A stretch of DNA of 64,000 bases from positions 2,877-66,876 of IMG/VR virus record IMGVR_UViG_3300036987_000538; one strand, written 5' to 3'. Shown here in pieces: positions 1,329 through 62,435 of the stretch. The position numbers were made by a program, and so were the translations under genes. The stretch's first letter is position 1. The number at the start of each line of letters is the position of its first letter. Below the pieces are notes generated by a model. It worked only from the letters and a program-made list of their open reading frames with translations. It did no database searches and was not told the DNA's origin. Source of the DNA: a virus.

Positions 1329-2185
1329 TGTTCGATCTGAATAAGCCCAACGTCGGCGCTGCCGGCGTCGCACCCTACTCGATTATCTACGGCCAGAACG
1401 GCATCGGCAAATCGACGTTCGCCGCCATGCCGCCGGGCACCCTGTTCGCTGACATCGAGCGCGGCTTGCCCGAGATGCTTCGCAGCATTCCGCGCTTCCC
1501 CGTCGATACGCTCGGCCAACTGCGGCAGCTGCTGTCTCAGCTGCGCGAGCAGCAGCATCCCTATCACCACATCGTCATCGACTCCGTGTCGGCGCTCAAT
1601 CAGAAGCTCGTTTCCGAGGTTTGCGCGGAACAGAAGTGGCTCCTGCCGGACGGCCGCAACGACATGGGCGAGAAGGGCTTTGGCGCCTTCGGCCGCGGCG
1701 ACAAGGTGATCGCCGAAAAGTACGCCTACATCAACGACGACATTCTCAAGCTCAAAGAGCAGCGCAACATCGCAGTGACGTTGCTCGGACACGTTCGCCC
1801 GCTGCGTGTGAAGCCGCCGGATACCGACGAATATTCGCGCTACGACATCATGCTTCCGGCTCAGGCCATCGAAGTGCTGACGCAGCGCGCCGACATCGTT
1901 GGGTTCATGAGCTACCCGGTGACGGTCATCAAAAAGGAAGGCCAGCGCTCCGGCCCCGGTCAGGCGATCGGCGAGGACGACGCGCGGCTCTATCTCACGA
2001 GCGCAGCGACACACAACGCCAAGAACCGCTTTGGCATGCCGGCGTCGATCATCATTCCGCGCGGCAATCCGCTGCACGGTTTCCAACAGTATGCGTCATT
2101 CATTCCGTACTTTGCGCCGATCTTCGCGCAGGGCGGACCCATCAACGGACAGCACAACGGAGCAGCGGCAGCAGCAGTCCAGTAA
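1328..2185 (+). CDS. Sak4-like RecA-fold ATPase (AAA_24 family) ssDNA annealing/recombination protein
   Basis: ATG at 1328 after AAGAGGAAGAAAG; Walker A YGQNGIGKST; hhhhD VIDSV; LLGHV motif; sits next to the SSB-like gene. Confidence 0.55.
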   Translation: MFDLNKPNVGAAGVAPYSIIYGQNGIGKSTFAAMPPGTLFADIERGLPEMLRSIPRFPVDTLGQLRQLLSQLREQQHPYHHIVIDSVSALNQKLVSEVCAEQKWLLPDGRNDMGEKGFGAFGRGDKVIAEKYAYINDDILKLKEQRNIAVTLLGHVRPLRVKPPDTDEYSRYDIMLPAQAIEVLTQRADIVGFMSYPVTVIKKEGQRSGPGQAIGEDDARLYLTSAATHNAKNRFGMPASIIIPRGNPLHGFQQYASFIPYFAPIFAQGGPINGQHNGAAAAAVQ

Positions 2186-2195
2186 CACGTGTTAC
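2182..2195. repeat. motif A palindrome GTAACACGTGTTAC
   Basis: overlaps the Sak4 stop codon. Confidence 0.9.
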
Positions 2196-2244
2196 CGAGC
2201 GAGTGAGCGAGTAGGCAGAGCAACAGACAGAGAGATAGAGAGAC

Positions 2245-3076: not shown

Positions 3077-4024
3077 ATGACCGAGCAGCAGAACTATCAC
3101 GGACGTCGCACCGTCGAAGAAATCGTGGATGCGATTTATAAGTCGTACGAAGCCGACGACGAGGGCGACGGACTCCCGTGGAGCATCCGCCCAAGCTCGA
3201 TCGGCAACGAGTGCGGACGCTCAGTGCAACTCGCGTGGATGTGGGTGACGACGCCAAAGAAATTCGACGGGCGCATGCTCGGGCTATTTGAAGCCGGCAA
3301 GCGAGCCGAGGACGAGCTGATACGCGACCTTAAGCGCATCGGCTGGGAAGTGATCGAGAAAGATCCAGCCAAGCCCACGAAGCAGTGGCAGGCCAAGGTG
3401 CTCGACGGGCACTGCAAGGGCTATCTCGACGGCATCGGCCGCGACCGCGTCGTCAATGGGCCGTGGATGCTGCTCGAAATGAAGTCGCACAACAACAAGA
3501 GCTTCAACAAAACCAAGAAGTACGGCGTAGCAGCGGCGAAGCCCGAGCACTTTGCGCAGATGCAGCTCTACATGCACGTGTTTCAGCTTGAAGTTGCCGT
3601 TTACAGTTTCACGAACAAGGACAGCAGCGAGAAGTGGAAGGAATACGTCGACTACGACGCCAAGTACATCGAGCGCCTGCTTGAGAAGGGCTCGACGATT
3701 CTCGGCAAGCGCGTGTTACTGCCCCGGATCTCGAATAACCCCGACTACTTCATGTGCCGATACTGCGACCACCGCGCCTACTGCCACGAGGGCAAGCCGG
3801 CTGAGCGCAACTGCCGGACGTGCGAGCACTCGCGAGCGCTCGCGGATGGCGCATGGGGTTGCAACAAGCACCAGTGCGCCATCACACGCGAGTTGATGAA
3901 GGCTGGATGCGCCGGCTACCAGCTGAACGAAATGTTGCGCCCTACTGACGAAGCGACCGCATCGTCGCGTCGTTCGCGGACTCCGGCTCAAGCTGAACCG
4001 GCTTCCGAGGCCCTGGAGGCGTAG
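3077..4024 (+). CDS. Cas4/RecB-family PD-(D/E)xK exonuclease with Fe-S cysteine cluster
   Basis: LLEMKSHN (ExK); one N-terminal Cys (IGNECG) plus CRYCDHRAYC (C-x2-C-x5-C) as in Cas4/AddB; follows the Sak4/SSB pair. Confidence 0.55.
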   Translation: MTEQQNYHGRRTVEEIVDAIYKSYEADDEGDGLPWSIRPSSIGNECGRSVQLAWMWVTTPKKFDGRMLGLFEAGKRAEDELIRDLKRIGWEVIEKDPAKPTKQWQAKVLDGHCKGYLDGIGRDRVVNGPWMLLEMKSHNNKSFNKTKKYGVAAAKPEHFAQMQLYMHVFQLEVAVYSFTNKDSSEKWKEYVDYDAKYIERLLEKGSTILGKRVLLPRISNNPDYFMCRYCDHRAYCHEGKPAERNCRTCEHSRALADGAWGCNKHQCAITRELMKAGCAGYQLNEMLRPTDEATASSRRSRTPAQAEPASEALEA

Positions 4025-5081: not shown

Positions 5082-5095
5082 GTAACATCTGTTAC
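5082..5095. repeat. motif A GTAACATCTGTTAC
   Basis: between the tail fiber stop and the endolysin start. Confidence 0.9.
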
Positions 5096-9532: not shown

Positions 9533-9546
9533 GTAACAGATGTTAC
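9533..9546. repeat. motif A GTAACAGATGTTAC
   Basis: 11 nt upstream of the large tail fiber ATG. Confidence 0.9.
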
Positions 9547-9549
9547 TGC

Positions 9550-13876: not shown

Positions 13877-13890
13877 GTAACACCTGTTAC
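13877..13890. repeat. motif A GTAACACCTGTTAC
   Basis: 2 nt upstream of the ATG at 13874. Confidence 0.9.
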
Positions 13891-17986: not shown

Positions 17987-18000
17987 GTAACAGATGTTAC
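17987..18000. repeat. motif A GTAACAGATGTTAC
   Basis: abuts the stop at 18001; 20 nt upstream of the ATG at 17966. Confidence 0.9.
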
Positions 18001-21390: not shown

Positions 21391-21404
21391 GTAACATCTG
21401 TTAC
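21391..21404. repeat. motif A GTAACATCTGTTAC
   Basis: between the scaffold stop and the RyR gene SD. Confidence 0.9.
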
Positions 21405-27289: not shown

Positions 27290-27303
27290 GTAACACCTGT
27301 TAC
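27290..27303. repeat. motif A GTAACACCTGTTAC
   Basis: overlaps the portal stop; 1 nt from the next GTG start. Confidence 0.9.
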
Positions 27304-30138: not shown

Positions 30139-30624
30139 ATGCGCATCTGGTTCGACACAGAATTTATCGAAGACGGCGAGACGATCGACCTGATTTCGAT
30201 CGGCCTCATTCGTGAGGATGGCCGCACCTATTACGCCGAGAGCGCCGAGTGCGCGCTTAGCCTGGCTTGCCCGTGGGTTGAGGCAAATGTGTTTCCCCAC
30301 CTTACCGGCGACCGCAAGAACAAGAGTCGCATCGCCCGAGACATCGTCGAGTTTGCCGGCAGCGATCCCGAGTTTTGGGCGTGGTTCGGCGCTTACGATT
30401 GGGTGTCGCTGTGCCAGCTCTACGGTCGCATGATCGACCTGCCGAAAGATTGGCCCATGTTCGTGCGCGATCTGCGGCAGCACGTGGACGGCACGCCTTG
30501 GCGAGCGCCTGAGCAGCTGAGCATCAAGCATCACGCGCTGAACGACGCCATCTGGACGATGCAGGCGCATGCCGACTTCGACCACCAGTATCTATCGAAA
30601 GTGCTCCGCTCCGGCGTCCGGTAA
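30139..30624 (+). CDS. DEDDh-family 3'-5' exonuclease (DnaQ/oligoribonuclease-like)
   Basis: Exo I motif MRIWFDTEFIEDG; Exo III motif HHALNDAIW. Confidence 0.55.
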   Translation: MRIWFDTEFIEDGETIDLISIGLIREDGRTYYAESAECALSLACPWVEANVFPHLTGDRKNKSRIARDIVEFAGSDPEFWAWFGAYDWVSLCQLYGRMIDLPKDWPMFVRDLRQHVDGTPWRAPEQLSIKHHALNDAIWTMQAHADFDHQYLSKVLRSGVR

Positions 30625-30634
30625 CAGGAGTTAC
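30621..30634. repeat. motif A variant GTAACAGGAGTTAC
   Basis: 4 nt upstream of the ATG at 30639. Confidence 0.7.
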
Positions 30635-32842: not shown

Positions 32843-32856
32843 GTAACAGATGTTAC
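32843..32856. repeat. motif A GTAACAGATGTTAC
   Basis: convergent junction; overlaps the terL stop. Confidence 0.9.
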
Positions 32857-35028: not shown

Positions 35029-35370
35029 CTCGTTCTCCTTGATCTTTGAAGCGGCCTTGCTGATGTCGGCGGCGACGCGTGCGTCCACCTTCTCGAGTCG
35101 GCCAAGGCAATACTTTGAGCCGTACTTGTCGGGGTCGGGGTAAAACTCCCCGAGCGCCATGCGCAGCTCACGCAAAGCAACCGTGACGCGCGCCTGCAGC
35201 GCATGCAGGCCAGCGCGGGTGTGCGGTAACACGGTGTTACCGACGCCGGCCATCTTGCACTCGTACGTGATGCTCGGGTCGACTTCGACCTCGCGCCCCG
35301 CCGCCTTAAGCCGCCCTACGAAATTCTCAGGCGGGATCAGCGTCCCCATCGTGTCGTTGCTCACCCACAT
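35026..35370 (-). CDS. hypothetical protein containing an in-frame palindrome (GNTVLP)
   Basis: ORF; GTAACACGGTGTTAC at 35226-35240 encodes GNTVLP. Confidence 0.35.
   Translation of the reverse strand: MWVSNDTMGTLIPPENFVGRLKAAGREVEVDPSITYECKMAGVGNTVLPHTRAGLHALQARVTVALRELRMALGEFYPDPDKYGSKYCLGRLEKVDARVAADISKAASKIKENE
35226..35240. repeat. motif A (15-mer) GTAACACGGTGTTAC, intragenic
   Basis: in frame, encodes GNTVLP. Confidence 0.7.
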
Positions 35371-38033: not shown

Positions 38034-38921
38034 TTAGGCGGCGACAGCCGCCGCGCGCGGATGCGCCTTTTCGTACGTTTCCATCAGCCGGTCGGTGGCC
38101 ACGTGCGCGTAAATCGCCGTGGTGCTCACCGACTCGTGGCCGAGCAATTCCTTGATGTCGATCAGCGATGCGCCCGCGTTCAGCAGCTGCGTGGCAAAGC
38201 TATGCCGGAGGCTGTGGGGCGACGCGTCGGCTGGGAGCCCAAGCCGCTTGGCGTAGCTCGCAAAGATGCGCCGCACGTCGCGATCGACCAGCGGCACCAG
38301 ATTTTCGGACACGAAAAGGGGGTGCTCGTCGGCGAGATCCGCGGTCGGCAGCGCCACGAGGTAGGCGTCGATCGCGTCCCAGGCCGCGGGCAGCACCGGC
38401 ACCAGACGTTCCTTGTTGCCCTTGCCCCACACGCGGACCACGTCGCGACGCTCGCCGGCATCGGCGATGGTCAGCTTGAGCGCTTCGCCGACGCGCAGGC
38501 CGGTCGCCCACATAAGCGTGAGCAGCGCCTCGTCACGTTTCCCGAGCCAGCCGTTGCGATGCGAAGCTGCCGCAATCAGCTCAAAGCACTGGTCGATCGT
38601 GAGCGCGCGCGGTAGGCGGGAGTTGGCTTTGACTTTCGGGCCGCGCACGGTGCGCAGGGCCTCGATGGCGGCGCTATCGTTGGCGCACCACTTGTAAAAC
38701 GATTTGAGGGCGGCGAGCAGCACGTTGACGGACTTGTCGCCGAGGCCACGCGTGCGAGCGTGCTTGACGACTGCGCGCACGTCCTTGGCACTCATGACGT
38801 CGGGCGGCAGCAGCAGGTCTGCGACCAGCATAAGCTGCCCGGCGTACGCAGTAACAGATGTTACAGCCAGCAGATCTTGCTGGCGCATGTGCTGCTGCCA
38901 AGCCTCGATCGCGGCGCGCAT
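38034..38921 (-). CDS. XerC/XerD-like tyrosine recombinase
   Basis: ATGLRVGEALKL, HSLRHSFAT, LLGHESVSTTAIYAHV (catalytic Y); N-terminus aligns to the XerD core-binding domain; contains an in-frame palindrome (VTSVT) at 38851-38864. Confidence 0.75.
   Translation of the reverse strand: MRAAIEAWQQHMRQQDLLAVTSVTAYAGQLMLVADLLLPPDVMSAKDVRAVVKHARTRGLGDKSVNVLLAALKSFYKWCANDSAAIEALRTVRGPKVKANSRLPRALTIDQCFELIAAASHRNGWLGKRDEALLTLMWATGLRVGEALKLTIADAGERRDVVRVWGKGNKERLVPVLPAAWDAIDAYLVALPTADLADEHPLFVSENLVPLVDRDVRRIFASYAKRLGLPADASPHSLRHSFATQLLNAGASLIDIKELLGHESVSTTAIYAHVATDRLMETYEKAHPRAAAVAA
38851..38864. repeat. motif A GTAACAGATGTTAC, inside the xerC-like gene
   Basis: in frame, encodes VTSVT. Confidence 0.8.
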
Positions 38922-40236: not shown

Positions 40237-40754
40237 GTGCGCATTCTCCTATTTGACGATGCACACTAACTCACTTAGTGCGAGTCGTCAAAGGGAAACG
40301 AGTGCCCGGTATTTTTTGGCAAAAAAAATTTTCGGGGAGCTGGTTTTTCGCAGAAACGTGAGTGCGCGGGTATCAGTACCGTCCGCGGGTTCCCATGCAT
40401 GGGACCGTTTCGGGTCGACCGGGGCGGGTGTTGCCGGTGCAATGCACGCAAGGGTACCCAATCGACCGGGCCACCCCTATCGCGTGCGTCGCGCCGCCGC
40501 TCCGTTGCCTATGCCTTGCCCGTGTCCGCTAATAACGATTATGGAAAGTGTATGCGCACCAATGCCTTAGCGTCGCGGGCGGTGTGTGGATATTTCTATT
40601 TGTATGAGCACCTCGCAGTAACAGAATGTTACCGGCCTCGCCGGCATTTGCGATTCATAACTTGTTAGTGCGATTCGTACAATCCTACCTTTGCCGCAGT
40701 AAGTCCGCGGCATTCCGGCCGATAGGCCAAAACGCACCGCAAGGGGGATCTGAG
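40237..40754. promoter_or_regulatory. divergent control region between leftward and rightward operons
   Basis: about 520 bp non-coding; contains TTGACG boxes; operator-like TAGTGCGAGTCGTCAAA (40276-40292), TTTGCGATTCATAA (40647-40660) and TAGTGCGATTCGTACAAT (40666-40683); AT-only inverted repeat at 40316-40347; perfect palindrome TCCCATGCATGGGA at 40391-40404; motif A at 40618-40632. Confidence 0.6.
40618..40632. repeat. motif A (15-mer) GTAACAGAATGTTAC
   Basis: divergent control region. Confidence 0.8.
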
Positions 40755-41054: not shown

Positions 41055-41087
41055 TGATAGTGGCAGACGCAAACAACGGAGACACTT

Positions 41088-41174
41088 ATGAGCATGACAA
41101 ATGACACCGCAATGGCCATCGCAGTCCTTGCCTTCGTTGTAGGCATTCTGGCGCTTTGCGGATCGCTGCCGTAA
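41088..41174 (+). CDS. tiny hydrophobic peptide (28 aa)
   Basis: ACGGAG SD; AMAIAVLAFVVGILALCG; stop overlaps the palindrome at 41171-41185. Confidence 0.3.
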   Translation: MSMTNDTAMAIAVLAFVVGILALCGSLP

Positions 41175-41185
41175 CAGAGTGTTAC
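41171..41185. repeat. motif A (15-mer) GTAACAGAGTGTTAC
   Basis: overlaps the stop of the 28-aa ORF. Confidence 0.8.
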
Positions 41186-45362: not shown

Positions 45363-45699
45363 TCTACTTTTTCCGCGCGTCACTCGCCTGACGGCATGCA
45401 ATCCGACGCGCGCGCAATCGCTGGTGCGCCTCGCGTTGTTCACTGCCGGCGGCGTTGGACTCCACGCCGCTAGCGCTGTGGCGCCGCTCGTTCTGCCGGT
45501 CGCGTGCGGGCTTGCTGGCGCGGCGCTTGTCCAGATGTCGCTTAATGCCATCGGCAAGCGCATCGGCCGCGTGCGAGCGGTCCATTATCGCGACAAAGAA
45601 ACGCTATTGCGCGACTTGCGCAAAGTCGACCGCGAGCGAGCACGCGAGCGCATCCTTGACGAAACAATCGGCCGCTGGCCGGCCGGCTTTTCTCAGTAA
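45355..45699 (+). CDS. membrane protein
   Basis: 8-nt overlap with the upstream gene; hydrophobic helices. Confidence 0.35.
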   Translation: MLDLLFPRVTRLTACNPTRAQSLVRLALFTAGGVGLHAASAVAPLVLPVACGLAGAALVQMSLNAIGKRIGRVRAVHYRDKETLLRDLRKVDRERARERILDETIGRWPAGFSQ

Positions 45700-45710
45700 C
45701 AGGCTGTTAC
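45696..45710. repeat. motif A (15-mer) GTAACAGGCTGTTAC
   Basis: overlaps a stop; 21 nt before the next ATG. Confidence 0.8.
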
Positions 45711-46311: not shown

Positions 46312-46701
46312 ATGAAATGGTATCTGCTGAGCGACAAGGCAGCGGACGAGATCCGCGGGGCAATCGAGATCTGCCTCGAACGCGCGATTGACAAAGGTGA
46401 GTATGACTCGCTCGCGCCATTGCGCGGAGCACTCAACGAAATGCGCGATGGCACAACCACGCCGCGCACGTTCGCCGCGCCTGAGCCGGCGGCACCAAGC
46501 GAGCCGGCTGATGACGGCTATCGCGCTGCGTGCATCGCCAGGGGCTGGCGCTGGTACGACAACAACAGCGTGCTGGCGCAGCTGACCGGGCACACGTTCG
46601 GCATCGCGCACGAACCCACGACCGAGGGCGACGCGAACGAGAATGACTCCATCTACGCGACGTGGCGCGACTGCGCACGCGAGGCGCTCGGCGTCGAGTA
46701 A
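46312..46701 (+). CDS. hypothetical protein
   Basis: leader repeat upstream; stop overlaps the palindrome. Confidence 0.35.
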   Translation: MKWYLLSDKAADEIRGAIEICLERAIDKGEYDSLAPLRGALNEMRDGTTTPRTFAAPEPAAPSEPADDGYRAACIARGWRWYDNNSVLAQLTGHTFGIAHEPTTEGDANENDSIYATWRDCAREALGVE

Positions 46702-46712
46702 CACCCTGTTAC
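46698..46712. repeat. motif A (15-mer) GTAACACCCTGTTAC
   Basis: overlaps a stop; 25 nt before the next ATG. Confidence 0.8.
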
Positions 46713-47200: not shown

Positions 47201-47457
47201 AGCTCAAGCCTGGGGAACTGCGCGCGAAGTGGAGTAGGCGCGAGCGAGACGTTGAGGCCGACGCCTCTGGCGCGGGCCGCGCTGACATCTACCTCATTCT
47301 CGACGCGCTTTGCGGCAAGCGGTTCTCACCAAGCCCGAAGGTTATCGGCGCGTATCAGGTTGACCCGTCGCTGCGAGACGAGCTTGAGCGGCGCGGCTAC
47401 GACATCACCACGCTGAAATTCTCAATTCAGAAAAGGGCGCCATCGAATGGCCAGTAA
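47197..47457 (+). CDS. hypothetical protein
   Basis: GTGA overlap with the upstream gene; stop within the palindrome. Confidence 0.3.
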   Translation: MKLKPGELRAKWSRRERDVEADASGAGRADIYLILDALCGKRFSPSPKVIGAYQVDPSLRDELERRGYDITTLKFSIQKRAPSNGQ

Positions 47458-47623
47458 CAACCCGTTACCGCGCTTCGCCATGCTCGTGCTGTGCATGGCG
47501 CTCGTGCAGGCGGCTTGGTTGGTCGCAGCCGCCAAGACCCAGCCGCCTACCTACGCGCTCCTCGTGGGCGATAAGCTGGGCGTGGTGCGCAGCTACTGCT
47601 ACCTCTTGGAGTCAACGCCATGA
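47447..47623 (+). CDS. possible small secreted/membrane peptide (58 aa)
   Basis: ATG...ATGA overlap with the next gene; hydrophobic AMLVLCMALVQAAWLVAAA; below the ORF-track cutoff. Confidence 0.2.
   Translation: MASNNPLPRFAMLVLCMALVQAAWLVAAAKTQPPTYALLVGDKLGVVRSYCYLLESTP
47454..47468. repeat. motif A variant GTAACAACCCGTTAC
   Basis: overlaps the stop of 47197-47457. Confidence 0.6.
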
Positions 47624-47870: not shown

Positions 47871-47885
47871 GTAACATGGGGTTAC
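47871..47885. repeat. motif A variant GTAACATGGGGTTAC
   Basis: just downstream of the promoter; upstream of the SD/ATG at 47900. Confidence 0.6.
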
Positions 47886-48723: not shown

Positions 48724-49069
48724 GGGTGGAGTCGTTCAACGCGTAACTTCCGACAACGCGCTCATTCATGGGGCGACCGTTGCCGTTGTTCACGACGACG
48801 TAGTCGACCGCGCCGTCGCGGTGTCTTACAGCGACGAGCTGCAGGCTCTCATCACTCAGGCGCTCGACAACAGCACGTGCCACGGCATCGGCATCGCATG
48901 CGAGCTTGCGGGCGAGCAGCTGATTGCGCTCAGCCGAACTGCGATCACCGACCCAACGACAATGACGCGTCAGGTTGACGAGGTCATGAGGATGCTGATG
49001 TCGATGGTTGAGCGCGCGCACGCCTCGCCGCTTGCGGTAACAGATGTTACCCCGGACGCGATCGCCTAA
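48701..49069 (+). CDS. hypothetical protein; C-terminus contains an in-frame palindrome (VTDVT)
   Basis: GTG start with GGGGAAG SD. Confidence 0.3.
   Translation: MNIAIHIEGGVVQRVTSDNALIHGATVAVVHDDVVDRAVAVSYSDELQALITQALDNSTCHGIGIACELAGEQLIALSRTAITDPTTMTRQVDEVMRMLMSMVERAHASPLAVTDVTPDAIA
49037..49050. repeat. motif A GTAACAGATGTTAC
   Basis: convergent junction; in frame VTDVT. Confidence 0.85.
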
Positions 49070-50238: not shown

Positions 50239-50251
50239 ACGTACTCCTGAG

Positions 50252-50265
50252 TAACGCATGTTACT
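50252..50265. repeat. motif A variant GTAACGCATGTTAC
   Basis: immediately upstream of the SD of the methyltransferase gene. Confidence 0.7.
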
Positions 50266-51720: not shown

Positions 51721-51734
51721 GTAACAGATGTTAC
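51721..51734. repeat. motif A GTAACAGATGTTAC
   Basis: 23 nt upstream of the GTG at 51697. Confidence 0.9.
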
Positions 51735-52145: not shown

Positions 52146-52219
52146 TGGGCGACCGGGCAGGATTTGAACCTGCATTACCTCCACTCCGGGTCGGCGTCCT
52201 ACCGTTAGACGACCAGCCG
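52146..52219 (-). tRNA. tRNA-like gene with encoded CCA; anticodon arm non-canonical
   Basis: minus strand CGGCTGG-TC-GTCT-AACGGTA-GGAC...GCAGG-TTCAAAT-CCTGC-CCGGTCG-C-CCA: acceptor stem (2 G-U), D-arm and T-arm fold cleanly; the putative anticodon stem (CCGAC/GGAGG) has 2 mismatches; followed by hairpins GGCCGAAAGGCC and CCCCGCCGGGG. Confidence 0.5.
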
Positions 52220-52442: not shown

Positions 52443-55400
52443 TTAGTTCAGCCGCCACCCCACCCACGTCTGAATGAACTCCAAGCACCCCACATCGTCG
52501 AGCCCGCGCGCGTACTCACGTAACGCTGGCGACTGATTGCACGTCGCCTCGATTAGCCCCCTCACGAGAACCATCGCGTGCCGTCTTATTTGCTGCACCA
52601 TCAACCGCTCTATCTTACTGATCGTCAATCCTGAGCGGCGCCTTATGTCCTCGTCACTGAGCCCACGCCTGATGACTGCCAGCATTCGCTTGCACCTGTT
52701 CTTACGAACCACGTGCAATTCGACGACTTCAAGTGACTGATTTTGCGCATATCCCAATGTGAAACCGGCTAAACCATCCTTATCGGTTCTGAGATATTCG
52801 ACCTCCCTCTTACTTATTAGAGCTAAGGATGGTTTAGCCGTCGAGTGATGCGAGATAAGAGTTGCATCATCAAGAGGGTCAATTTCGAGCCAAGCGCGAA
52901 GCAGAGCGCGGACATAATCCATGCCCACGCGTTGCATGTGGTCCCACCCTGTGGATGCCTCTTTGTAGAGCCCGGCGAACGCGTCGAGTGTTGTCCCCGC
53001 GTCCTCAAATAGCCCGAGCGCGATAAGCGCCACGTCGCCTTCCTCTGGCCGCACGTCAGCGAGCGTGCAGAGCCGCGTCACGGGCAAGCCCACCGGCCAC
53101 TGCCCGAACACCGTCACGTCGCACGGATTGGCGCTGGTGCGGTCGTACGGCCGGATGCGCGCCACGGCCTGCGCCACTTCCGCGTGGCTGATGAGTGCCT
53201 GCAGCGCGCGGGCGTTGGCGTCGGGATGCCCGTCGCACTGGACGTTGATGGTGGTCCCATCGACCATGTGTACTGGCAACGTCTGCTTGCCCCAGCCCTC
53301 GGCATGGGCAATAGGCGCGACGCTGTCGTTTTGTATGAACAATGCTTCTGTGTAGAGTTCGAGCTGGTGGTTATCCAGCGCCGGCCGTCCCACGATGGTT
53401 GCAGATGGCACGTCTTTAAAGTTGTTGAGGCCACGTAAAGCCCCAAAGTGCGCGGTGAGCACGTTGCCCGGTAACCCCATGTTACTGAGCGCTTCGAGAA
53501 CGTCTTTCTGAGCGACCAAGAGCGTCTGCTTGTGCGTGAACGCCTGCTTGAGCACGTGCAGCCAGATGGCGAACACCCTCGAGTCGGCGCGCTTCTTCCG
53601 GTTGACGCGCTTGTGCGTCAGCGCCGTCGCCACTTGCTTGGCCGAGTCTTGGATGCGCGCCGCCTCGTTGGGGTCGTCGAACGCAGCAGCGATCCAGCTG
53701 GCGCGCGACACTGCCGATGCGCGCTCGATCGCCTCGTCGAGATCTTTGTCCGGCTTGGGCAGCAACGCGCTCTTGGCGTACCCGGCGTCGATGACTTGCG
53801 TGATCACCACGTTGCCGGGCGTGGGCGCCACGTCGATCGTCTCGTAATCAAAGGGCGTCCCATCCGGCGAGATCACCGCCCGCCAGATGGCCAGCCCCGG
53901 GTCGAGCTTGGCCGTACCGTCAAGGTGGACCGCGCCGCGTGCCAGGACGTTATCCGGCAGAAACAGCCGTCGCTTGGCGGTCACCCATTTGATGCCTCGG
54001 GCGTGATGCACCCGGATCGCCTTGTAGTGGCTGAGCCGGTGCGAGTCCCGCATGTTGCTGAGCAGCCCGGTCACAAAATTGCTGGTCTTCACGTGAGCGA
54101 GGTCGCGCAGGAATTTGGCCTGCGTGGCGTTGACGAGGTTCTTGCTGAGCGTTTCCCGGTGCGTCTCCTCCAGCGCCAGCATCGCGTCGATGCGTTCGGC
54201 CGTGAGCGTGCTCGGGACCAGTGCCCGCTCGCTCTGGCCGCGCGGCATCGCGGCGTTGAACATCGAGATCAGCTCGGCGCGCGAGTCGCGCAGCTTGATG
54301 AACCCGCCCTGGTAGTTGAGATCTTTGAGTTCGATGTTCTCTTGCGGGTTGCCGGCGAGCGCGCTGCCGACGACGCTCTCGTCGATCAGCGTGATGCTCG
54401 CCCACGAACTGAGGTGGTGATGCTCGTTGAACAGCGCAGCGTGCGGCAGCAGGACTTCGCCGGCACCCGTGTCGTTGTCTTGGGCGAGCCACTTGCAGTC
54501 GCCTCGGTCGGGGCACAGCGCGCAGGCTGATTTCTTCGCTGAGATCCCCAGCTGCTCGGCGCGCTCGGCGATGGCGCCGTACTTGGTGTTGGTGCAAAGC
54601 AGCTTGCGCCCCTTGTGGTGCCGCACCGCCTCGGGGAGATTCACGCCGTAGTGCATTCCGGCCGGCGCCAGGCCAAATGCGTGGTCGCGATGATCCTCGG
54701 CGAGCTGCTCGGCGAGCGCATGCGTCGGGGCCGCGGTCAGCACGCTGTCCGAGCTGAGCACGCCGGCCGTGAGCACGCTGCGGAGCGCGTAGCTCTTGCC
54801 GGCACCCGGCGGGCTGGTCGCAAGTATCTGCTTCGGCTTGCCTTTTAGGATCTCCTCGGCGGCGAGCTTCACACGGTCGGCCAGCTCCTGTCGGGGCGGC
54901 TTGGCGCTCTGTGTTGGAGGTACACACGCAGAGGTTGAGTAAGCATTTGTTACTGCCCGAGCCCGAGCGCGGGCCTTGTCCCATGCCTGCTGCAGCCTGA
55001 ACACGCTCAGGTGCTCGCGTTCGCGGCGAGGGTACTCGTTGGGGTCCATCTCAAGCAGCGTGCGGCGGGCGAGCGCGACGAACGCGCCAAAGTGCTGGGC
55101 TTGCTGGTTGTCGGGGGCCGCGAACGCAGCTGAGCACAGCGCCCGGTGCAGCGGTAACGCCACGTTACCGGGGGCGATCTGCGCCATCCAATCGGTGCGC
55201 TGCCCCGGCACGGTGCCGGCGTACTGCTCGATATACGCGATGTCGCGAGCGTCCAGCCCGGCGACCGCCGCGGCGCGCGTCACGCCTATGTCGGCCTCGT
55301 CGCCGTCGAAGTGCCACGCGATCGGCGTGGGCACGGGACGACCGAGCGCAACTTGCTCGTCGCCGCAGTCAGCAAACAATATCGGCCCGGCGAGTGCCAC

Positions 55401-56051
55401 GAAGCTCTGTGGGCCATAGATCGAGTCGTCGAATAGCTTGCGGCCGGCGCGCTGGTTGGCATAGCGCACGAACGCGCGCTGCGACGCGAGCGTGTGCTCC
55501 TCGGTGGTGACGATAAAGATGCGGACGCGGATCTTGGGCTTGATGCCGGCGCTCGGCGAGAAGCACGCCACGTGGGCGCAGCCGTCCAGCTCGGGGATCT
55601 CGTAAAGCGCGTCGCGGACGGTGTCCGGCGCGTCGCCGATGTCGCCCTCGATTTCGTCGGCGTCGAGCACGAGCAGTTTGCGCGGATAGTCCTCGTAGTT
55701 TTCCTGCTGTCGCCCGAGCACGTCTTTCCAGCCGCTGTCGACTTGGAACTCCGCGCCGGCTCGCAAGCGGCCTTGGATCAAAGCCACGTCCGGCTTGGTT
55801 GCGGCTGTTTCAAGAAACATGCGCAACCCGGTGAGGCCGTTGATCGGTTCCTCGCGGTATCCGTGCAGATACACGCCTTTGCCGACCGCGCCGACTTCAT
55901 CCCATGTACCAGCAACGACATCCGGGGCCTGCGAGCCCCAATTGATGCCGACTGCCGGCCGAAGTCGGTAGGTCTTGGTCAGCGCCTTGTTATAGGCGCG
56001 GATGAGGGCAACGTGCATTAGGCATCCCTGGATTGCCCACCATGCTACCAC
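52443..56051 (-). CDS. replication protein: primase/polymerase-like N-terminal domain + P-loop NTPase/helicase + C-terminal HTH
   Basis: LLVLDADE (AEP-like DxD); Walker A SPPGAGKS; Walker B ITLIDESV; C-terminal LSDEDIRRRSGLTISKIERL sigma-r4-like HTH. Confidence 0.45.
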   Translation of the reverse strand: MVAWWAIQGCLMHVALIRAYNKALTKTYRLRPAVGINWGSQAPDVVAGTWDEVGAVGKGVYLHGYREEPINGLTGLRMFLETAATKPDVALIQGRLRAGAEFQVDSGWKDVLGRQQENYEDYPRKLLVLDADEIEGDIGDAPDTVRDALYEIPELDGCAHVACFSPSAGIKPKIRVRIFIVTTEEHTLASQRAFVRYANQRAGRKLFDDSIYGPQSFVALAGPILFADCGDEQVALGRPVPTPIAWHFDGDEADIGVTRAAAVAGLDARDIAYIEQYAGTVPGQRTDWMAQIAPGNVALPLHRALCSAAFAAPDNQQAQHFGAFVALARRTLLEMDPNEYPRREREHLSVFRLQQAWDKARARARAVTNAYSTSACVPPTQSAKPPRQELADRVKLAAEEILKGKPKQILATSPPGAGKSYALRSVLTAGVLSSDSVLTAAPTHALAEQLAEDHRDHAFGLAPAGMHYGVNLPEAVRHHKGRKLLCTNTKYGAIAERAEQLGISAKKSACALCPDRGDCKWLAQDNDTGAGEVLLPHAALFNEHHHLSSWASITLIDESVVGSALAGNPQENIELKDLNYQGGFIKLRDSRAELISMFNAAMPRGQSERALVPSTLTAERIDAMLALEETHRETLSKNLVNATQAKFLRDLAHVKTSNFVTGLLSNMRDSHRLSHYKAIRVHHARGIKWVTAKRRLFLPDNVLARGAVHLDGTAKLDPGLAIWRAVISPDGTPFDYETIDVAPTPGNVVITQVIDAGYAKSALLPKPDKDLDEAIERASAVSRASWIAAAFDDPNEAARIQDSAKQVATALTHKRVNRKKRADSRVFAIWLHVLKQAFTHKQTLLVAQKDVLEALSNMGLPGNVLTAHFGALRGLNNFKDVPSATIVGRPALDNHQLELYTEALFIQNDSVAPIAHAEGWGKQTLPVHMVDGTTINVQCDGHPDANARALQALISHAEVAQAVARIRPYDRTSANPCDVTVFGQWPVGLPVTRLCTLADVRPEEGDVALIALGLFEDAGTTLDAFAGLYKEASTGWDHMQRVGMDYVRALLRAWLEIDPLDDATLISHHSTAKPSLALISKREVEYLRTDKDGLAGFTLGYAQNQSLEVVELHVVRKNRCKRMLAVIRRGLSDEDIRRRSGLTISKIERLMVQQIRRHAMVLVRGLIEATCNQSPALREYARGLDDVGCLEFIQTWVGWRLN
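53471..53485. repeat. motif A-like degenerate GTAACCCCATGTTAC, intragenic
   Basis: inside the replication gene; encodes SNMGLP. Confidence 0.4.
55154..55168. repeat. motif A-like degenerate GTAACGCCACGTTAC, intragenic
   Basis: inside the replication gene; encodes GNVALP. Confidence 0.4.
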
Positions 56052-56055
56052 CCGA

Positions 56056-56090
56056 GAGTGTGACTCGTCAAAACTGTTTTACGCTTGACG
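56056..56090. promoter_or_regulatory. motif B site (GTGTGACTCGTCAAAA) + TTGACG box in the divergent region between the replication gene and the rightward operon
   Basis: seen directly in sequence. Confidence 0.5.
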
Positions 56091-56143
56091 CTATCTCAGA
56101 GACAAGCTAGTTTTGTGCCCATCGTAAAACATGGGGGACTCAC

Positions 56144-56236
56144 ATGAACGAGCGGACTTGGGGAATCATCGGCACGGCTGTCACCGCGCTGGTCGTAACC
56201 GGCGCGCTCTTTGTGGTGCTGTCTCACCACATCTGA
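56144..56236 (+). CDS. tiny hydrophobic peptide (30 aa)
   Basis: GGGGGA SD; GIIGTAVTALVVTGALFVVL. Confidence 0.3.
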   Translation: MNERTWGIIGTAVTALVVTGALFVVLSHHI

Positions 56237-56244
56237 GGGCCACG

Positions 56245-56709
56245 ATGGCACGCCGTCGCACAACCAAGAAAGCGCCGAAGCTCAAGTCTGACAAGCTGAG
56301 CGAGATTGACCTGCGCACGCTGGCCTACGCTGCCGGCACGTACATCAATCAGGCTGCGGAAATTGTCGAGCTGTTGAACGAACGCTGGTGGCGCAACCCG
56401 AAAACGGGCCGCTTCATGCGCCGCAACTTCGGGGAGCTGATCGCGCTCGGGCACAGCGAGTTGTCGGAAGCGCTCGAAGCTGACCGCAAGGATTTGATGG
56501 ACGACAAGCTGCCGCATCGGCGCGGCGTCGAAGTCGAGCTTGCGGACGAAATCATCCGTGTCCTCGACACGGCGCGCAACTACCACCGCACGAAGCGCAA
56601 GCACAAGCTCAACATCGGCGAAGCGACGATGGAGAAGCTGATTTTCAACCACACGCGGCCGGACCACAAGCCGAAGGCACGACTCGCCAAGGGCGGCAAG
56701 GCTTACTAG
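56245..56709 (+). CDS. hypothetical basic protein
   Basis: SD GAGGG. Confidence 0.35.
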   Translation: MARRRTTKKAPKLKSDKLSEIDLRTLAYAAGTYINQAAEIVELLNERWWRNPKTGRFMRRNFGELIALGHSELSEALEADRKDLMDDKLPHRRGVEVELADEIIRVLDTARNYHRTKRKHKLNIGEATMEKLIFNHTRPDHKPKARLAKGGKAY

Positions 56710-56756: not shown

Positions 56757-57287
56757 ATGTTTTCTGCGCCCGCGCTACCCATCGACCCTGCTATTCGCGA
56801 CAACATGCGTCGCTGGCTCGCGCACCATAAGCGCTTCCAGTACGTCGAGCTGCCGCCGATCCTGCACACCACGAAGGTTGGTCAGAAAACCCGGGCCGTC
56901 TATGTCCCGCATCTGCGCCGGCACAAGCTGGATCACTGCAAACGCTACACCGGCAAGCTGCTGCGCGCGATTGAGGCTGAGCGCGGTTGCAGCAAGCGGC
57001 GGCGACCGCCGCCACAGCATCAACTGAAAATTGCGCTGCCATGGAAGCAGAGCGACGCGCGCGTTGTCGCGTTCAACATCGAGCGCGACGAAGCCGGCAA
57101 GCCGTTCTTTAGCGACGTGCGGCTGCTGCGCAATGCAGCGTCACGCACGAAGCGCGACAAGCGACTCGAAAATTCACTCACCGATGAGCAGTGGCTGTCG
57201 ATCTACAAGCGAGTTGCGCGTGCCATGTTCCCCGCGACGGACGGAGCGAAGAACACGTGGAAGGATTTTGCCTTTAAGAGCGCTTGA
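56757..57287 (+). CDS. hypothetical protein
   Basis: AACGGAGCACTGATG leader. Confidence 0.35.
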   Translation: MFSAPALPIDPAIRDNMRRWLAHHKRFQYVELPPILHTTKVGQKTRAVYVPHLRRHKLDHCKRYTGKLLRAIEAERGCSKRRRPPPQHQLKIALPWKQSDARVVAFNIERDEAGKPFFSDVRLLRNAASRTKRDKRLENSLTDEQWLSIYKRVARAMFPATDGAKNTWKDFAFKSA

Positions 57288-57389: not shown

Positions 57390-57599
57390 ATGCGAGTGAT
57401 TGCGAAGCTGACCGAGCGAACCGACGAGATCCTGACGCGCAACTTTTCTGACCGAGCCCTGACCGCGACAACCGTCTTCCTCTGCACGTACTTGGCGCTG
57501 GCGTCGGCGGCGTATTTCGCCAGCAGCGCACATACCAAAAACAATCAGTCACCGAGTGCCGCGTGCGCGCAGCTGCAGCTGCGCGGCTCGCTCCAGTAA
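57390..57599 (+). CDS. small membrane protein
   Basis: one TM helix; stop inside the palindrome at 57596-57609. Confidence 0.3.
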   Translation: MRVIAKLTERTDEILTRNFSDRALTATTVFLCTYLALASAAYFASSAHTKNNQSPSAACAQLQLRGSLQ

Positions 57600-57609
57600 C
57601 AAGCGTTAC
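57596..57609. repeat. motif A variant GTAACAAGCGTTAC
   Basis: overlaps the stop of 57390-57599. Confidence 0.7.
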
Positions 57610-59184: not shown

Positions 59185-59198
59185 GTAACACCTGTTAC
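59185..59198. repeat. motif A GTAACACCTGTTAC
   Basis: 10 nt upstream of the GGAGGGG-ATG at 59209. Confidence 0.9.
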
Positions 59199-59568: not shown

Positions 59569-59726
59569 ACGTCTGGCTAGTCCGCTGGGGCGGCAGGATT
59601 ACACGCGATAACGGCACGGCGTACGTGCTCGCCTGTGACGAAGTGACGGCCGAAGAAAAATTCATGCAGCGGCACCCGCATCGCCGCGTCGACCGCATCG
59701 AGCTGCTCGGGAGCGTGATCCAGTGA
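59565..59726 (+). CDS. small protein (53 aa)
   Basis: ATGA coupling. Confidence 0.25.
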   Translation: MNVWLVRWGGRITRDNGTAYVLACDEVTAEEKFMQRHPHRRVDRIELLGSVIQ

Positions 59727-61405
59727 CCCAAATCGTACTTCGCCCGCACCAGCAGGAAGCGCACGATGCCGTGCTTGAGCACTGGAAGAACGGCGGCGGT
59801 AACCCGCTGATCGACCACTGCGTTGGCTCTGGCAAGTCGCTCACGCAAGCGGCCATCGCCGCGACCGTCGTGCAGCGTTGGGGCGCCAGCGTGCTCGGGC
59901 TCACGATGACAAAAGAGCTGATCGGCCAGAACTACGACGCCATGCGGGCGTACTGGCCAGACGCACCGGCCGGCATCAACTGCGCCGGCCTCAAGCGCCG
60001 CGACGCCAAGCAGTCGATCGTCTTCGCGCACCCGGCGTCGATCGTGCGTAACGTGAAGTTACTCGGCAAGCGCCACGTCGTCATGATTGACGAAGTCCAG
60101 AACGTCTCGCGCAAAGAGGAAGCAAGCACGTACGGCAAGATCATCACGCAACTGCGCGACGCCGTGCCTGACCTGCGTCTCGTCGGACTGAGCGGCACGT
60201 GCTACCGGCTCGACTCCGGCCTGCTGTGGGAGCCGTGGAAGGGTGCTCAGTCCATATGGGACGAGCCGGTTCACACGTACAACATGCTCGACGGTATCCG
60301 TGACGGCTACCTCGTGCCGATCATCCCGCGCGTCGGTGGTGTCAATCTGTCGTCAGCTGGCGTCGGTACCCGCGGCGGCGAGTACATCGACTCGCAAGTC
60401 CAGAAGGCGGTCGACAAGGACGAGCTGAACAAGGCGATCGTCGCCGACATTATCGCCAAGACGTACGACCGAAACTCGGTCCTCGTGTTCGCGGCCGGCA
60501 TCGAGCACGCCGAGCACTTGCATGCGGAGTTTGTGCAGAGCAGCGCCTCTGCCGTGGTCATTCACGGCGAGCTGAGCGACGCCGAGCGCGACGCACGCAT
60601 CGACTATTTCATGCGTGGCGCAGCGAAATACGCCATCAACGTCGGTATTCTCACCACGGGATTTAATCACCCACCCTGTGACGCTGCAGCGCTGGTCATG
60701 ATGACCAAGAGCAAGGGCAAGCTGGTGCAGATCCTCGGGCGCGTCATGCGCGCTCACCCGGGCAAGGCCAACGCGCTCGCGCTCGATTACGGCGGCAGCA
60801 TTCGCGAGCTGGGCTGCATCGACCAGCTTGTCGGCAGCAAGGTTGCTGGTGAGCCTGGAAAGGCGCCAACCAAGACTTGCCCTGTGTGCGAGACGATCGT
60901 GCCGGCCAGCGCGCTCAAATGCACCAACTGCGATCACGAGTGGGAGAAGCCGGACCCCAAGCTGTCGGCTGAGGCGTTCGACGCTCCAATTCTGAGCACG
61001 CAGCAGGGTGCCGAATGGCACGAAGTCCAGCGCGTGCATTACTCGCTCTACAGCAAGCTCGACCCCGCAACGATGCAGCCGATGCCGAAGTCGCTGCGTG
61101 TGTCCTACTACTGCGGCGGCACCATAAATGCGAACGAGTTTCTCGCGTTCGCGCATCCCAAGCCGGGCGCGCGCAGGCTCGCACAAATGAAGTGGGCTCG
61201 CTACTCGACCGGCTTAGTGGTCCCATCCACCGCAGAGGAAGCGCTCGGCATGGTGGCAGAGCTTCGCAAGCCGGCGCGTATTCAGCTCAGAAAGAACGGC
61301 AAATATTGGGAAGTGATCGCGCACGACTACAGCGTCGAGCAGCGCGACGCCCCAACCAGCAACACGATGACCGCGGCAGAAATCGCCGCAGCGATGGGGG
61401 CGTGA
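59723..61405 (+). CDS. SF2 DNA helicase (ResIII/DEAD-like) with C-terminal zinc ribbon
   Basis: motif I GSGKS; motif II MIDEVQN; CPVCE...CTNC. Confidence 0.6.
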   Translation: MTQIVLRPHQQEAHDAVLEHWKNGGGNPLIDHCVGSGKSLTQAAIAATVVQRWGASVLGLTMTKELIGQNYDAMRAYWPDAPAGINCAGLKRRDAKQSIVFAHPASIVRNVKLLGKRHVVMIDEVQNVSRKEEASTYGKIITQLRDAVPDLRLVGLSGTCYRLDSGLLWEPWKGAQSIWDEPVHTYNMLDGIRDGYLVPIIPRVGGVNLSSAGVGTRGGEYIDSQVQKAVDKDELNKAIVADIIAKTYDRNSVLVFAAGIEHAEHLHAEFVQSSASAVVIHGELSDAERDARIDYFMRGAAKYAINVGILTTGFNHPPCDAAALVMMTKSKGKLVQILGRVMRAHPGKANALALDYGGSIRELGCIDQLVGSKVAGEPGKAPTKTCPVCETIVPASALKCTNCDHEWEKPDPKLSAEAFDAPILSTQQGAEWHEVQRVHYSLYSKLDPATMQPMPKSLRVSYYCGGTINANEFLAFAHPKPGARRLAQMKWARYSTGLVVPSTAEEALGMVAELRKPARIQLRKNGKYWEVIAHDYSVEQRDAPTSNTMTAAEIAAAMGA

Positions 61406-61406
61406 C

Positions 61407-62435
61407 GTGAGCGAACAAGAGAAACCGCCGGCCGACAAAAGCGAGAGCTGGATCGCCGAAAGTGCGAAGCAGGCCGAACTCACGGCTGCGAAGCTGGCCA
61501 TGCAGAAAAAGCTCGACGCGCACATGCAGGACGTGGTCGGCGGCGTGATGACCAGCAACGCCCCAGCGAATCCATACATGCCGACGAAGTCGGGACGCGA
61601 GCTTTACGAGGCAGTACAGCGCCAGCTTGTAGAGAGGAAGTACGCGGGGGTTGATCCCGACCGCCTGTACGTGGACGACTTCAAGCGGCAGTACGTCGGC
61701 CAGTCCACCGTCCGCCCAAGGCGCGCGCCCATGGTGACCGCCTCGGGCATCCCGTTCGACATCCTGAACCCCCACCCCGAGAACGTCGACATCGTCGATG
61801 TTGCGCACCATCTGTCGCGAATCAATCGGTTCACTGGCGCCATCAAGTTTGAGCACTACTCCGTGGCGCAGCACAGCATTCTGTGCGCCAAGGTCATGCG
61901 GATCATGGCGCCGCAGTTCGAGCTGCACGCGCTCCTGCATGACGCACACGAGGCATATATCGGCGACATCTCCACACCCATGAAAAACGCGATCGAGGCG
62001 TATGCTGGGGATGGCTTGATTGCGCGCGTCGAGCAAGACGTCGAGAGCGCCGTTTGGCGCAAGCTCGGGAAAAGCGCGCTGCAGGATAAAAAACTCGTCA
62101 AGACTATCGACCTGTGGGCGTGCTGGCGCGAAAGCCACGACGTGCTCGCAGGCACACGCCCCGACGTGTGGAGGCCGCTCGACGACGAGGTTGCGCGTCG
62201 CATGGGCGGGGAGGACTTGAGCATGCTCGACAAGCAGCTCGGGCACATCACAGCCGGCTGGAGTCCAGACGTAGCAAAAGCCAAATTCCTGCAGGCGTAC
62301 ATCGACGCGGTGAAGCGGTGCAGCGTCACCGCCGTCAAGGCCAGTAACATCGGTTACCGGCCGTTCTTTATGCACCCCCGCCGCGCCGGCAAGTCGGTGC
62401 TGTTCGCTCAGAAGCACAACCTAGACACACCTTGA
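61407..62435 (+). CDS. HD-domain phosphohydrolase
   Basis: YSVAQHS ... HDAHEAYIGD metal-binding motifs. Confidence 0.5.
   Translation: MSEQEKPPADKSESWIAESAKQAELTAAKLAMQKKLDAHMQDVVGGVMTSNAPANPYMPTKSGRELYEAVQRQLVERKYAGVDPDRLYVDDFKRQYVGQSTVRPRRAPMVTASGIPFDILNPHPENVDIVDVAHHLSRINRFTGAIKFEHYSVAQHSILCAKVMRIMAPQFELHALLHDAHEAYIGDISTPMKNAIEAYAGDGLIARVEQDVESAVWRKLGKSALQDKKLVKTIDLWACWRESHDVLAGTRPDVWRPLDDEVARRMGGEDLSMLDKQLGHITAGWSPDVAKAKFLQAYIDAVKRCSVTAVKASNIGYRPFFMHPRRAGKSVLFAQKHNLDTP
62344..62357. repeat. motif A variant GTAACATCGGTTAC, intragenic
   Basis: near the 3' end of the HD hydrolase gene. Confidence 0.5.

Follow-up and report, generated by a model that had tools for sequence, protein, structure and literature searches.

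Dispersed, invariant repeats are already known from phage genomes, and they come in several forms. Cluster A stoperators, the sites of the L5 repressor gp71, occur as two to three dozen copies of 13-14 base pairs (bp) in the short intergenic spaces of a temperate phage; they lack symmetry, follow the direction of transcription and are bound by the repressor as a monomer, and the same sequence forms the operator of the early promoter. The start-associated sequences (SAS) of Cluster K are asymmetric 13-bp motifs that stand just 5' of numerous start codons and contain the ribosome-binding site. Xer recombination sites (dif, cer, psi and the pdif modules of Acinetobacter plasmids) are 28 bp long, with 11-bp arms around a central region of 6-8 bp, and many pdif sites bound gene modules in these plasmids, for which a shuffling of modules has been proposed. 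Cluster O mycobacteriophages (Corndog and its relatives) carry more than 30 invariant 17-bp dyads, TGTTCGG-NNN-CCGAACA, over a genome of ~70 kilobases (kb) (PMC4351075). Many of these dyads are intergenic, some are located at gene 5' ends and about a third lie within genes; their central bases are biased and not oriented with transcription, their positions are largely conserved among relatives, and they have no known function (PMC4351075). Stoperators have been proposed to silence the prophage by blocking elongation (summarised in PMC4351075). In SPbeta, a 15-bp element termed SPBRE is found in promoter regions at about ten places of the prophage and is bound by the master repressor MrpR (YopR), which displays a tyrosine-recombinase fold and has lost its catalytic residues (PMC10516654). 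Here, a dispersed palindrome built on paired GTAA and TTAC arms is described in an alphaproteobacterial phage of an Mx8-like portal lineage, within a stretch of 64,000 nucleotides (nt) of IMG/VR record IMGVR_UViG_3300036987_000538 (positions 2,877 to 66,876; hereafter the window).

The window contains 17 perfect copies of the palindrome, comprising 12 14-mers of the form GTAACA-NN-TGTTAC (GTAACANNTGTTAC) and five 15-mers of the form GTAACA-NNN-TGTTAC (GTAACANNNTGTTAC), while none was found in 100 dinucleotide-preserving shuffles. When the sixth pair is freed, GTAAC-N4/5-GTTAC identifies 26 sites against a chance expectation of ~0.05 (analytic), which bears out the claim of a preliminary description of this DNA that the motif lies far above chance. 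These 26 are the 25 copies listed in that description and one at 60048 that it had missed; all its coordinates hold the sequence given, apart from the copy placed at 50252, which begins at 50251, and the GC content, put at 65%, is measured at 63%. Allowing one mismatch in the 5-bp arms adds two sites where 1.9 are expected, and the motif family is therefore sharply bounded. One of the two, at 54939 (GTAAGCATTTGTTAC), matches an orthologous position in a relative and is taken as a 27th site. Ten positions are fully invariant over the 26 sites. Pooled half-site logos display information only from -3 to +5, leading to a dyad of 16-20 bp, a size typical of a dimer operator, with the half-site consensus (C)(C)R-GTAA(CA) and GTAA cores separated by 6 bp (16 of the 26 sites) or 7 bp. 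The 14-mers have a biased, non-palindromic centre, which reads GA/TC in 8 of 12. All 22 GTAACA hexamers on the plus strand fall within paired sites and none outside, and the sites are spaced along the window more evenly than under random placement (coefficient of variation 0.60 vs 0.95, P = 0.004). The dispersed palindrome family is real and functional, yet its extent had been overstated. A further unique palindrome, CCTAACGCGTTAGG, is located at 49065-49078, 15 nt past the site at 49037 and exactly on the overlap of two convergent genes; it has TAAC/GTTA in common with the motif, but its spacer is 2 bp.

The position of the sites relative to genes was evaluated with the stored contig annotation for 1-55 kb and, for 56-64 kb, with gene calls made here from GC content at third codon positions (GC3) and ribosome-binding sites. 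Coding sequence makes up 92% of the window, and only 9.3% of positions would place a site not fully within it; still, this holds for 18 of the 26 sites (P = 2e-13) and for 14 of the 17 perfect copies (P = 2e-12). The preference for junctions noted in the preliminary description is therefore upheld, while its wording that nearly every gene or operon junction carries a copy is not, as 18 of 75 junctions (24%) do so. The eight intragenic sites are those at 35226, 38851, 49037, 53471, 55154, 60048 and 62344, together with 47454, which lies in the first codons of its gene. At eight sites the upstream gene takes its stop codon from the TAA of an arm, as had been observed before. Sites at non-convergent junctions are found a median of 14 nt 5' of the next start codon (range 1-230 nt), and a purine-rich centre, AGGTG or AGGAG, stands in Shine-Dalgarno position for the next gene at 13877, 27290 and 30621; the suggestion that CAGATG can also supply an ATG finds no counterpart, since no called gene starts there. 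A site lies within 20 nt at two of three convergent junctions and within one of three divergent regions. The centre bases occur in either orientation relative to transcription (AGAT and ATCT are both seen), the flanks display a weak orientation bias (CA...CGG, ~7:1), and three sites are located at or just downstream of sigma-70-like promoter matches. The location at junctions would mostly reflect the avoidance of coding constraint together with genome compaction, and genes would have shrunk until they met the site's invariant TAA and purine-rich centre.

Relatives of the phage, given below by locus number (L), were traced via portal homologues (53-72% identity), and a second region of their genomes was reached via the helicase-like protein; counts refer to loci of 12-24 kb, in each of which 0.05-0.15 sites are expected. 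The shared core GTAA-N6/7-TTAC is found in five related lineages with 4-12 copies per locus, and the outer G and C are invariant at every site of all five. The form differs between lineages, being (GC)A-GTAAC-N4/5-GTTAC-T(GC) in L122/L265 (6 + 11 sites), mostly GTAAG-N4-CTTAC in L125 (7 sites) and L128 (9 sites), and GTAA-N6/7-TTAC in the closest relative, L130/L266 (4 + 12 sites). In each relative, the sites are far commoner at junctions than the coding fraction predicts. The preliminary description had named absence from homologous junctions of related phages as the outcome that would speak against it, and the opposite was found. Within the 12 kb common to the window and L130, three of three window sites lie at orthologous junctions, and four phages (window, L130, L122 and L125) share unchanged GTAAC...TTAC columns at the junction that follows the portal gene, while the flanks have diverged. 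Orthologues in L266 exist for about nine window sites of the early half, including the convergent junction of genes for 122 and 132 amino acids (aa), which also carries a site in L265, and the sites before the MT-A70, SPFH and 119-aa genes. Between orthologous sites, N6 and N7 spacings replace each other freely.

Conservation extends to sites within genes. The helicase-like gene contains two or three intragenic sites in each of three lineages, and two of their alignment columns are common to the window and L266; in L265 the sites are displaced by 16 codons, and one lies in an eight-codon insertion, AVTGVTPL, which is essentially a translated site. Likewise, in the recombinase gene of the window and of L122, AVTSVTAY is written in A/T-ending rare codons that spell a full embedded site. 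These intragenic sites in the helicase and recombinase genes therefore indicate selection on nucleotide sequence and on intervals, independent of stop and start codons. Beyond the clade, the motif is absent from L129 (47% portal identity) and from ~150 more distant portal-related loci. A portal-alignment scan of IMG/VR revealed relatives only at ≤41% identity, none of them motif-bearing, and in single-protein scans neither the portal against IMG/VR nor the helicase against JGI metagenome contigs gave a match; searching IMG/VR for the exact 14-mer yielded only single chance matches in AT-rich contigs. Judged from these comparisons, the motif is clade-specific and kept in place by selection. L129 (an ENA scaffold of 66.5 kb) displays a repeat of its own, with seven copies of GTTTAAAC in 22.5 kb against 0.2 expected (positions 656, 1024, 1300, 2013, 4339, 9065 and 19544), three of them at junctions; its gene 3095-3781 encodes a protein of the dATP/dGTP pyrophosphohydrolase family beside the recombinase. 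Enriched palindromes of the distant relatives L223, L231, L148 and L225 were rejected as dispersed dyads, being protein repeats, tandem arrays or classical clustered operators.

The window covers most of a 68-71 kb metagenomic phage, with exact matches to a 68.5 kb Logan contig and a 71 kb JGI contig, while 42 kb of the window, compared with GenBank phages by megablast, had no nucleotide match. The genes encode a portal, large and small terminases, tail proteins, an endolysin and a holin, and the portal finds its best matches in Mx8, Mx9 and a Bradyrhizobium phage (~31-34% identity). Two tyrosine recombinases (integrases) are encoded, one XerD-like (Table 1) and a second at the right end (62912-64000, plus strand), and a gene for an S24 CI-like repressor lies just past the left edge of the window. 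With two integrases and this repressor, the phage is very likely temperate. The closest relatives are located on two contigs of one Hyphomicrobium metagenome-assembled genome (MAG), which suggests Hyphomicrobium as the host, binning being weak evidence.

It is proposed, at an even chance, that a dimeric protein with sequence specificity recognises the sites as double-stranded DNA and acts through them across the genome, with silencing or regulation as its most likely role. One symmetric protein dimer would bind each site as duplex. As the GTAA cores are 6 or 7 bp apart, the centres of the half-sites lie about one helical turn from each other, and both spacings may be tolerated because the helical repeat falls between the resulting centre distances of 10 and 11 bp. 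Sites along every operon would let one factor act on the whole genome, as transcriptional roadblocks, as silencers or as targets of a global regulator, and the protein is presumed to be phage-encoded. A site for a dimeric regulator had been among the roles suggested earlier, and it is favoured by the sharp 16-20 bp dyad, the conserved positions in relatives and the even spacing. Several points weigh against it. The motif is absent from the three main divergent promoter regions (29873-30139, 56018-56245 and the region upstream of the S24 repressor gene), and Pfam and PHROG scans of ~60 proteins revealed no clear DNA-binding candidate, most early proteins having no match. Rigid helix-turn-helix dimers are usually intolerant of a 1-bp change in spacing, 10 invariant positions over 26 sites are more typical of an enzyme recognition site than of graded operators, the GA/TC bias of the centre is not explained by a symmetric dimer, and the step to silencing is purely conjectural. 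In addition, the CI-like S24 repressor is probably not the binder, because its upstream region lacks the motif and CGCACTA-N4(7)-TAGTGCG, which it probably uses instead, lies nearby.

The latter palindrome, (CG)CACTA-N4 or N7-TAGTG(CG), occurs in four copies, at 40264-40280 and 41049-41062 in the window and, left of the window, at 19562-19575 and 21024-21037 in L126. Each copy either adjoins the gene of the CI-like repressor or lies in the early regulatory region, the L126 pair flanking the S24 gene, and isolated half-sites are found at 40666, 43278, 45098, 52412 and 57302; by its sequence and location, this palindrome looks like classical immunity operators. A sequence search of the PDB gave no more than marginal winged-helix matches for a 220-aa protein (666-1328), and none for the S24 repressor. 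The best-conserved small protein of the clade is a 154-aa protein (56245-56709, plus strand; 88% identity between the window and L266), whose homologues occupy differing genome positions (L266 9307-9771, L265 3929-4459, L125 6713-7099 and L128 9405-9707). It was dismissed as a candidate binder, as its sequence looks, by eye, like MazG (nucleotide pyrophosphohydrolase); it has no Pfam match. Further small proteins shared between the lineages are encoded at 48701-49069, 49066-49464, 50261-50833, 50824-51222 and 56757-57287.

Several other explanations were weighed against a protein acting on duplex DNA. Almost all of the sites are within transcribed regions, either between genes read in one direction or where convergent 3' ends meet, and many abut a stop codon and stand 1-50 nt 5' of the next start, so that they could act as RNA, in the form of a short GUAAC-loop-GUUAC hairpin at cistron boundaries, possibly protein-bound, serving as a processing, stability or translational-coupling signal. 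The Shine-Dalgarno-like loop at three sites, the change of the fifth pair from C:G to G:C between lineages, which is compensatory, and the weak orientation bias of the flanks are in line with such a signal. Yet the hairpin of the 14-15 nt core is weak (folding energy only -2.5 kcal/mol), and with 12-nt flanks the value of -10.1 compares with -9.4 ± 3.7 for random genomic windows, i.e., the context is structured no more than background. At orthologous sites, L130/L266 keeps only the four pairs of GTAA/TTAC; the fifth pair is pairable at 4 of 16 sites (two Watson-Crick and two wobble), and the folding energy is 0 at 14 of 16, leaving no potential for RNA or single-stranded DNA folding in that lineage. 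The loop has no consistent orientation relative to transcription, the conserved sites deep in the helicase gene are unconnected to stop or start codons, and an Rfam scan gave no match at the sites, finding only a tRNA. Intrinsic terminators or attenuators, possibly bidirectional, would account for the sites close to convergent junctions, and the copy at 21149 in L126, just left of the window, has a 9-bp extended stem followed by a T-run; individual copies can therefore double as terminators. The copies at 5082 and 62344 are flanked by GGCC...GGCC. In L122, after the capsid gene, the motif tips a long palindrome (15968-16009), GCGCTAGC-ta-GTAAC-GCGA-GTTAC-tg-GCTAGCGC, and the site is thus built into a strong hairpin in places. 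However, most copies are without a stem extension or T-run, canonical GC-rich terminators with T-runs are found at other places (18890-18857, 20707-20684, 34483-34459 and 41217-41239), and termination within the helicase and recombinase genes would be harmful. Weak folding, the lost fifth pair, the change between N6 and N7 at orthologous sites, both orientations of the centre, the lack of an Rfam match and the presence of terminators elsewhere argue against an RNA or single-stranded DNA hairpin, a terminator or a processing signal. An RNA element, including the 5-bp stem with a tetraloop put forward in the preliminary description, is accordingly rated quite improbable, and a terminator or attenuator extremely so, in agreement with the earlier rejection of terminator and simple promoter roles. 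A promoter role was discarded, as -35/-10 elements with constant spacing to the sites are not conserved, transcription from a dyad would run in both directions, and at several sites a start codon is only 1-4 nt away. REP-like (repetitive extragenic palindromic) hairpins were set aside for lack of a defining feature, a Chi-like role since half-sites are never found alone, similarity to parS since the half-sites are arranged in the opposite order, and the LexA Cheo-box (GAAC-N4-GTTC) and LacI-type operators since key bases or spacing differ. Cassette boundaries were rejected as the main explanation because moved genes are without sites on both sides.

Among proteins that may act on the sites, the XerD-like recombinase is a speculative candidate binder, based on its sequence and on the form of the sites, and the inverted GTAA arms with their 6-7 bp centre could be core-type targets of this enzyme. 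It matches Escherichia coli XerD over its full length (E = 7e-31) with the R, K, HxxRH and Y motifs present, it is kept beside the packaging genes in all relatives, and its own gene contains a site in two phages (the window and L122), while a second integrase is available for lysogeny. Xer enzymes tolerate central regions of 6-8 bp, which the equivalence of N6 and N7 fits, and the inner arms GTAA/TTAC resemble ATAA/TTAT of dif. Moreover, the Acb2-like gene and a 107-aa gene are found at differing positions in relatives, each time beside a site. The sites may thus form a pdif-like network at gene boundaries, where recombination shuffles, inverts or exchanges modules, including among co-infecting relatives; alternatively, the recombinase may merely bind as a genome-wide regulator, as an active-enzyme counterpart of MrpR and SPBRE, which provide a precedent for a global repressor with a recombinase fold (PMC10516654). 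Against this stand arms of only 6-7 bp without information beyond -3, where Xer and Cre sites have arms of 11-13 bp, and a supposed central region that is itself conserved in the window (C-A..T-G), which is unusual for an overlap region. In addition, were 27 sites in essential operons active, the genome would be scrambled; relatives keep a collinear gene order across the sites, moved cassettes lack sites on both flanks, and L129 encodes the recombinase but has no motif. Xer targets are therefore regarded as unlikely; if true, they would represent a new use of Xer recombinases in a phage. The binder could instead be a global regulator of the host, through which the phage would couple its expression to the physiology of an alphaproteobacterium. 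CtrA boxes have been reported in other alphaproteobacterial phages, and xTAA-N7-TTAx resembles the CtrA box TTAA-N7-TTAA(C). The Hyphomicrobium MAG, the lack of a phage-encoded binder in the protein scans and the lineage-specific changes at inner positions, which could track different hosts, would be consistent with this. It is nevertheless improbable, since CtrA requires T and A at the outer positions, which are G and C without exception in all five lineages, and most window sites have N6 rather than the CtrA spacing. Finally, fully invariant arms without degenerate copies, and an MT-A70 gene directly after a site, would suit an enzyme recognition sequence (of a methyltransferase, restriction-like nuclease or nickase), such as the GTWAC arms as a methylation target of the phage, a role also raised in the preliminary description. 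Isolated GTWAC pentamers (GTAAC/GTTAC outside pairs) are indeed mildly depleted, with 28 found against 41.5 ± 5.5 expected under synonymous-codon shuffling, but this places the signal in the arm pair and not in the single arm, as does the pairing of every plus-strand GTAACA. A 16-20 bp target with variable spacing is atypical of methyltransferases and Type II enzymes, the arm shrinks to GTAA in relatives, and a restriction target is something a phage would avoid rather than accumulate, making an enzyme site very improbable.

Table 1 Sites of the dispersed palindrome in the window and the gene of the candidate site-binding recombinase (positions are those of the window).
Feature	Position	Setting	Remarks
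GTAACACGTGTTAC	2182..2195	tandem (+) junction	TAA is the stop of 1328-2185 (AAA_24 protein); 49 nt 5' of 2245
GTAACATCTGTTAC	5082..5095	tandem (-) junction before endolysin gene	6 nt 3' of sigma-70-like CTGACG-16-TATATT match
GTAACAGATGTTAC	9533..9546	tandem (-) junction between 807-aa and 1070-aa tail genes	
GTAACACCTGTTAC	13877..13890	tandem (-) junction	2 nt 5' of ATG; coding-strand centre AGGTG in Shine-Dalgarno position
GTAACAGATGTTAC	17987..18000	tandem (-) junction, 264-aa/234-aa genes	orthologous sites L130 10703, L128 21133
GTAACATCTGTTAC	21391..21404	tandem (-) junction after 387-aa gene	orthologue L130 7597; same junction in L125, 14950
GTAACACCTGTTAC	27290..27303	end of portal gene	TAA is the portal stop; 1 nt before next GTG start
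GTAACAGGAGTTAC	30621..30634	tandem (+) junction	sixth pair imperfect; stop codon of 30139-30624; 4 nt 5' of 30639
GTAACAGATGTTAC	32843..32856	convergent junction	adjoins TerL stop codon
GTAACACGGTGTTAC	35226..35240	inside 5' part of 35026-35370 (-)	encodes GNTVLP, rare codon TTA
XerD-like tyrosine recombinase gene	38034..38921 (-)	beside packaging genes	candidate site-binding protein
GTAACAGATGTTAC	38851..38864	codons 19-25 of XerD-like recombinase gene	encodes AVTSVTAY, A/T-ending rare codons
GTAACAGAATGTTAC	40618..40632	626-nt divergent region	22 nt 5' of sigma-70-like -35 match
GTAACAGAGTGTTAC	41171..41185	287-nt gap	32 nt 5' of canonical terminator 41217-41239
GTAACAGGCTGTTAC	45696..45710	tandem (+) junction	stop of 45355-45699; directly after terminator-like hairpin 45668-45686
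GTAACACCCTGTTAC	46698..46712	tandem (+) junction	stop codon of 46312-46701
GTAACAACCCGTTAC	47454..47468	overlapping stop/start junction	stop of 47197-47457; 7 nt into 47447-47623; orthologue L266 18945, likewise 7 nt into homologous gene (58-aa)
GTAACATGGGGTTAC	47871..47885	14 nt 5' of 47900	12 nt 3' of TTGACG-17-TACGAT match; orthologue L266 18312
GTAACAGATGTTAC	49037..49050	convergent junction, 19 nt before stop of 48701-49069	orthologues L265 18224, L266 17116
GTAACGCATGTTAC	50251..50264	tandem (-) junction before MT-A70 gene	stop of 50261-50833; orthologue L266 15964
GTAACAGATGTTAC	51721..51734	23 nt 5' of 51215-51697 (-)	approximate orthologue L266 14513
GTAACCCCATGTTAC	53471..53485	intragenic, 1191-aa helicase-like gene	same alignment column as L266 12564; L265 site 16 codons upstream
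GTAAGCATTTGTTAC	54939..54953	intragenic, helicase-like gene	relaxed GTAA-N7-TTAC; same alignment column as L266 11096
GTAACGCCACGTTAC	55154..55168	intragenic, helicase-like gene	encodes PGNVALP, rare codon TTA
GTAACAAGCGTTAC	57596..57609	tandem (+) junction before SPFH gene	stop of 57390-57599; orthologue L266 8353
GTAACACCTGTTAC	59185..59198	10 nt 5' of 59209	orthologue L266 6742, 11 nt 5' of homologous gene
GTAACGTGAAGTTAC	60048..60062	intragenic, SNF2-type helicase gene 59723-61405	
GTAACATCGGTTAC	62344..62357	intragenic, 78 nt before stop of 61407-62435	GC3 frame plot: coding runs on through site

Two further features of the window were observed. A tRNA-Ser gene (anticodon GGA) is located at 52146-52219 on the minus strand, in a 708-nt gap 3' of the helicase-like gene. 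The gene at 20735-21376 (minus strand), between the scaffold-like and capsid genes, encodes an Acb2/Tad1-hairpin domain (resembling sponges against CBASS, the cyclic-oligonucleotide-based antiphage signalling system) fused to a RyR domain. The Acb2-like gene is found at quite different genome positions in relatives (L125 4984-5253, L129 9474-9797 and L265 8820-9863), and in motif-bearing phages it adjoins or contains a copy of the motif.

While few dispersed invariant phage repeats have an assigned mechanism, and the Cluster O repeats are still unexplained, this clade provides an unusually clean comparative set, in which positions persist through 40-70% protein divergence, inner bases are lineage-specific and spacings are interchangeable, and in which sites within coding sequence have been forced in by rare codons and even by a dedicated insertion. 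It could show by what means one short sequence lets a temperate alphaproteobacterial phage control or organise its entire genome, and in practice the motif may serve as a signature for spotting this phage group in metagenomes. In copy number and placement, the sites resemble stoperators, with 26-27 copies, 18 of them outside coding sequence, in a temperate phage with two integrases and an S24 repressor; they differ in being dyads, in having the centre in both orientations and in their absence from the main divergent promoter regions, and the CI-like repressor seems to have another operator. As with SPBRE and MrpR, the phage has a protein of the recombinase family, here known from its sequence, and the gene for it contains a site; yet the sites lie mostly within operons, and the recombinase keeps all catalytic motifs. 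Xer and pdif sites have in common with them the inverted arms, the 6-7 bp centre, the many copies and an intact Xer-family enzyme encoded alongside, but here only 6-7 bp per arm are informative and no rearrangement is seen at the sites among collinear relatives. Unlike SAS, the motif is a dyad whose distance to the start codon ranges from 1 to 230 nt, and it is also found at convergent junctions and deep within genes. The conserved inverted repeats of phiC31 are a further parallel for sites dispersed over a genome. The closest anatomical match is formed by the Cluster O repeats, which are likewise dozens of invariant dispersed dyads, mostly intergenic with an intragenic minority. Their sequence is unrelated, the window has no nucleotide match to a GenBank phage, and the Cluster O repeats belong to a siphovirus of actinobacteria that is not obviously temperate. 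Moreover, where the Cluster O dyads have a fixed 3-bp spacer, the GTAA cores here stand interchangeably 6 or 7 bp apart, and the conservation reaches across lineages whose proteins are just 40-60% identical.

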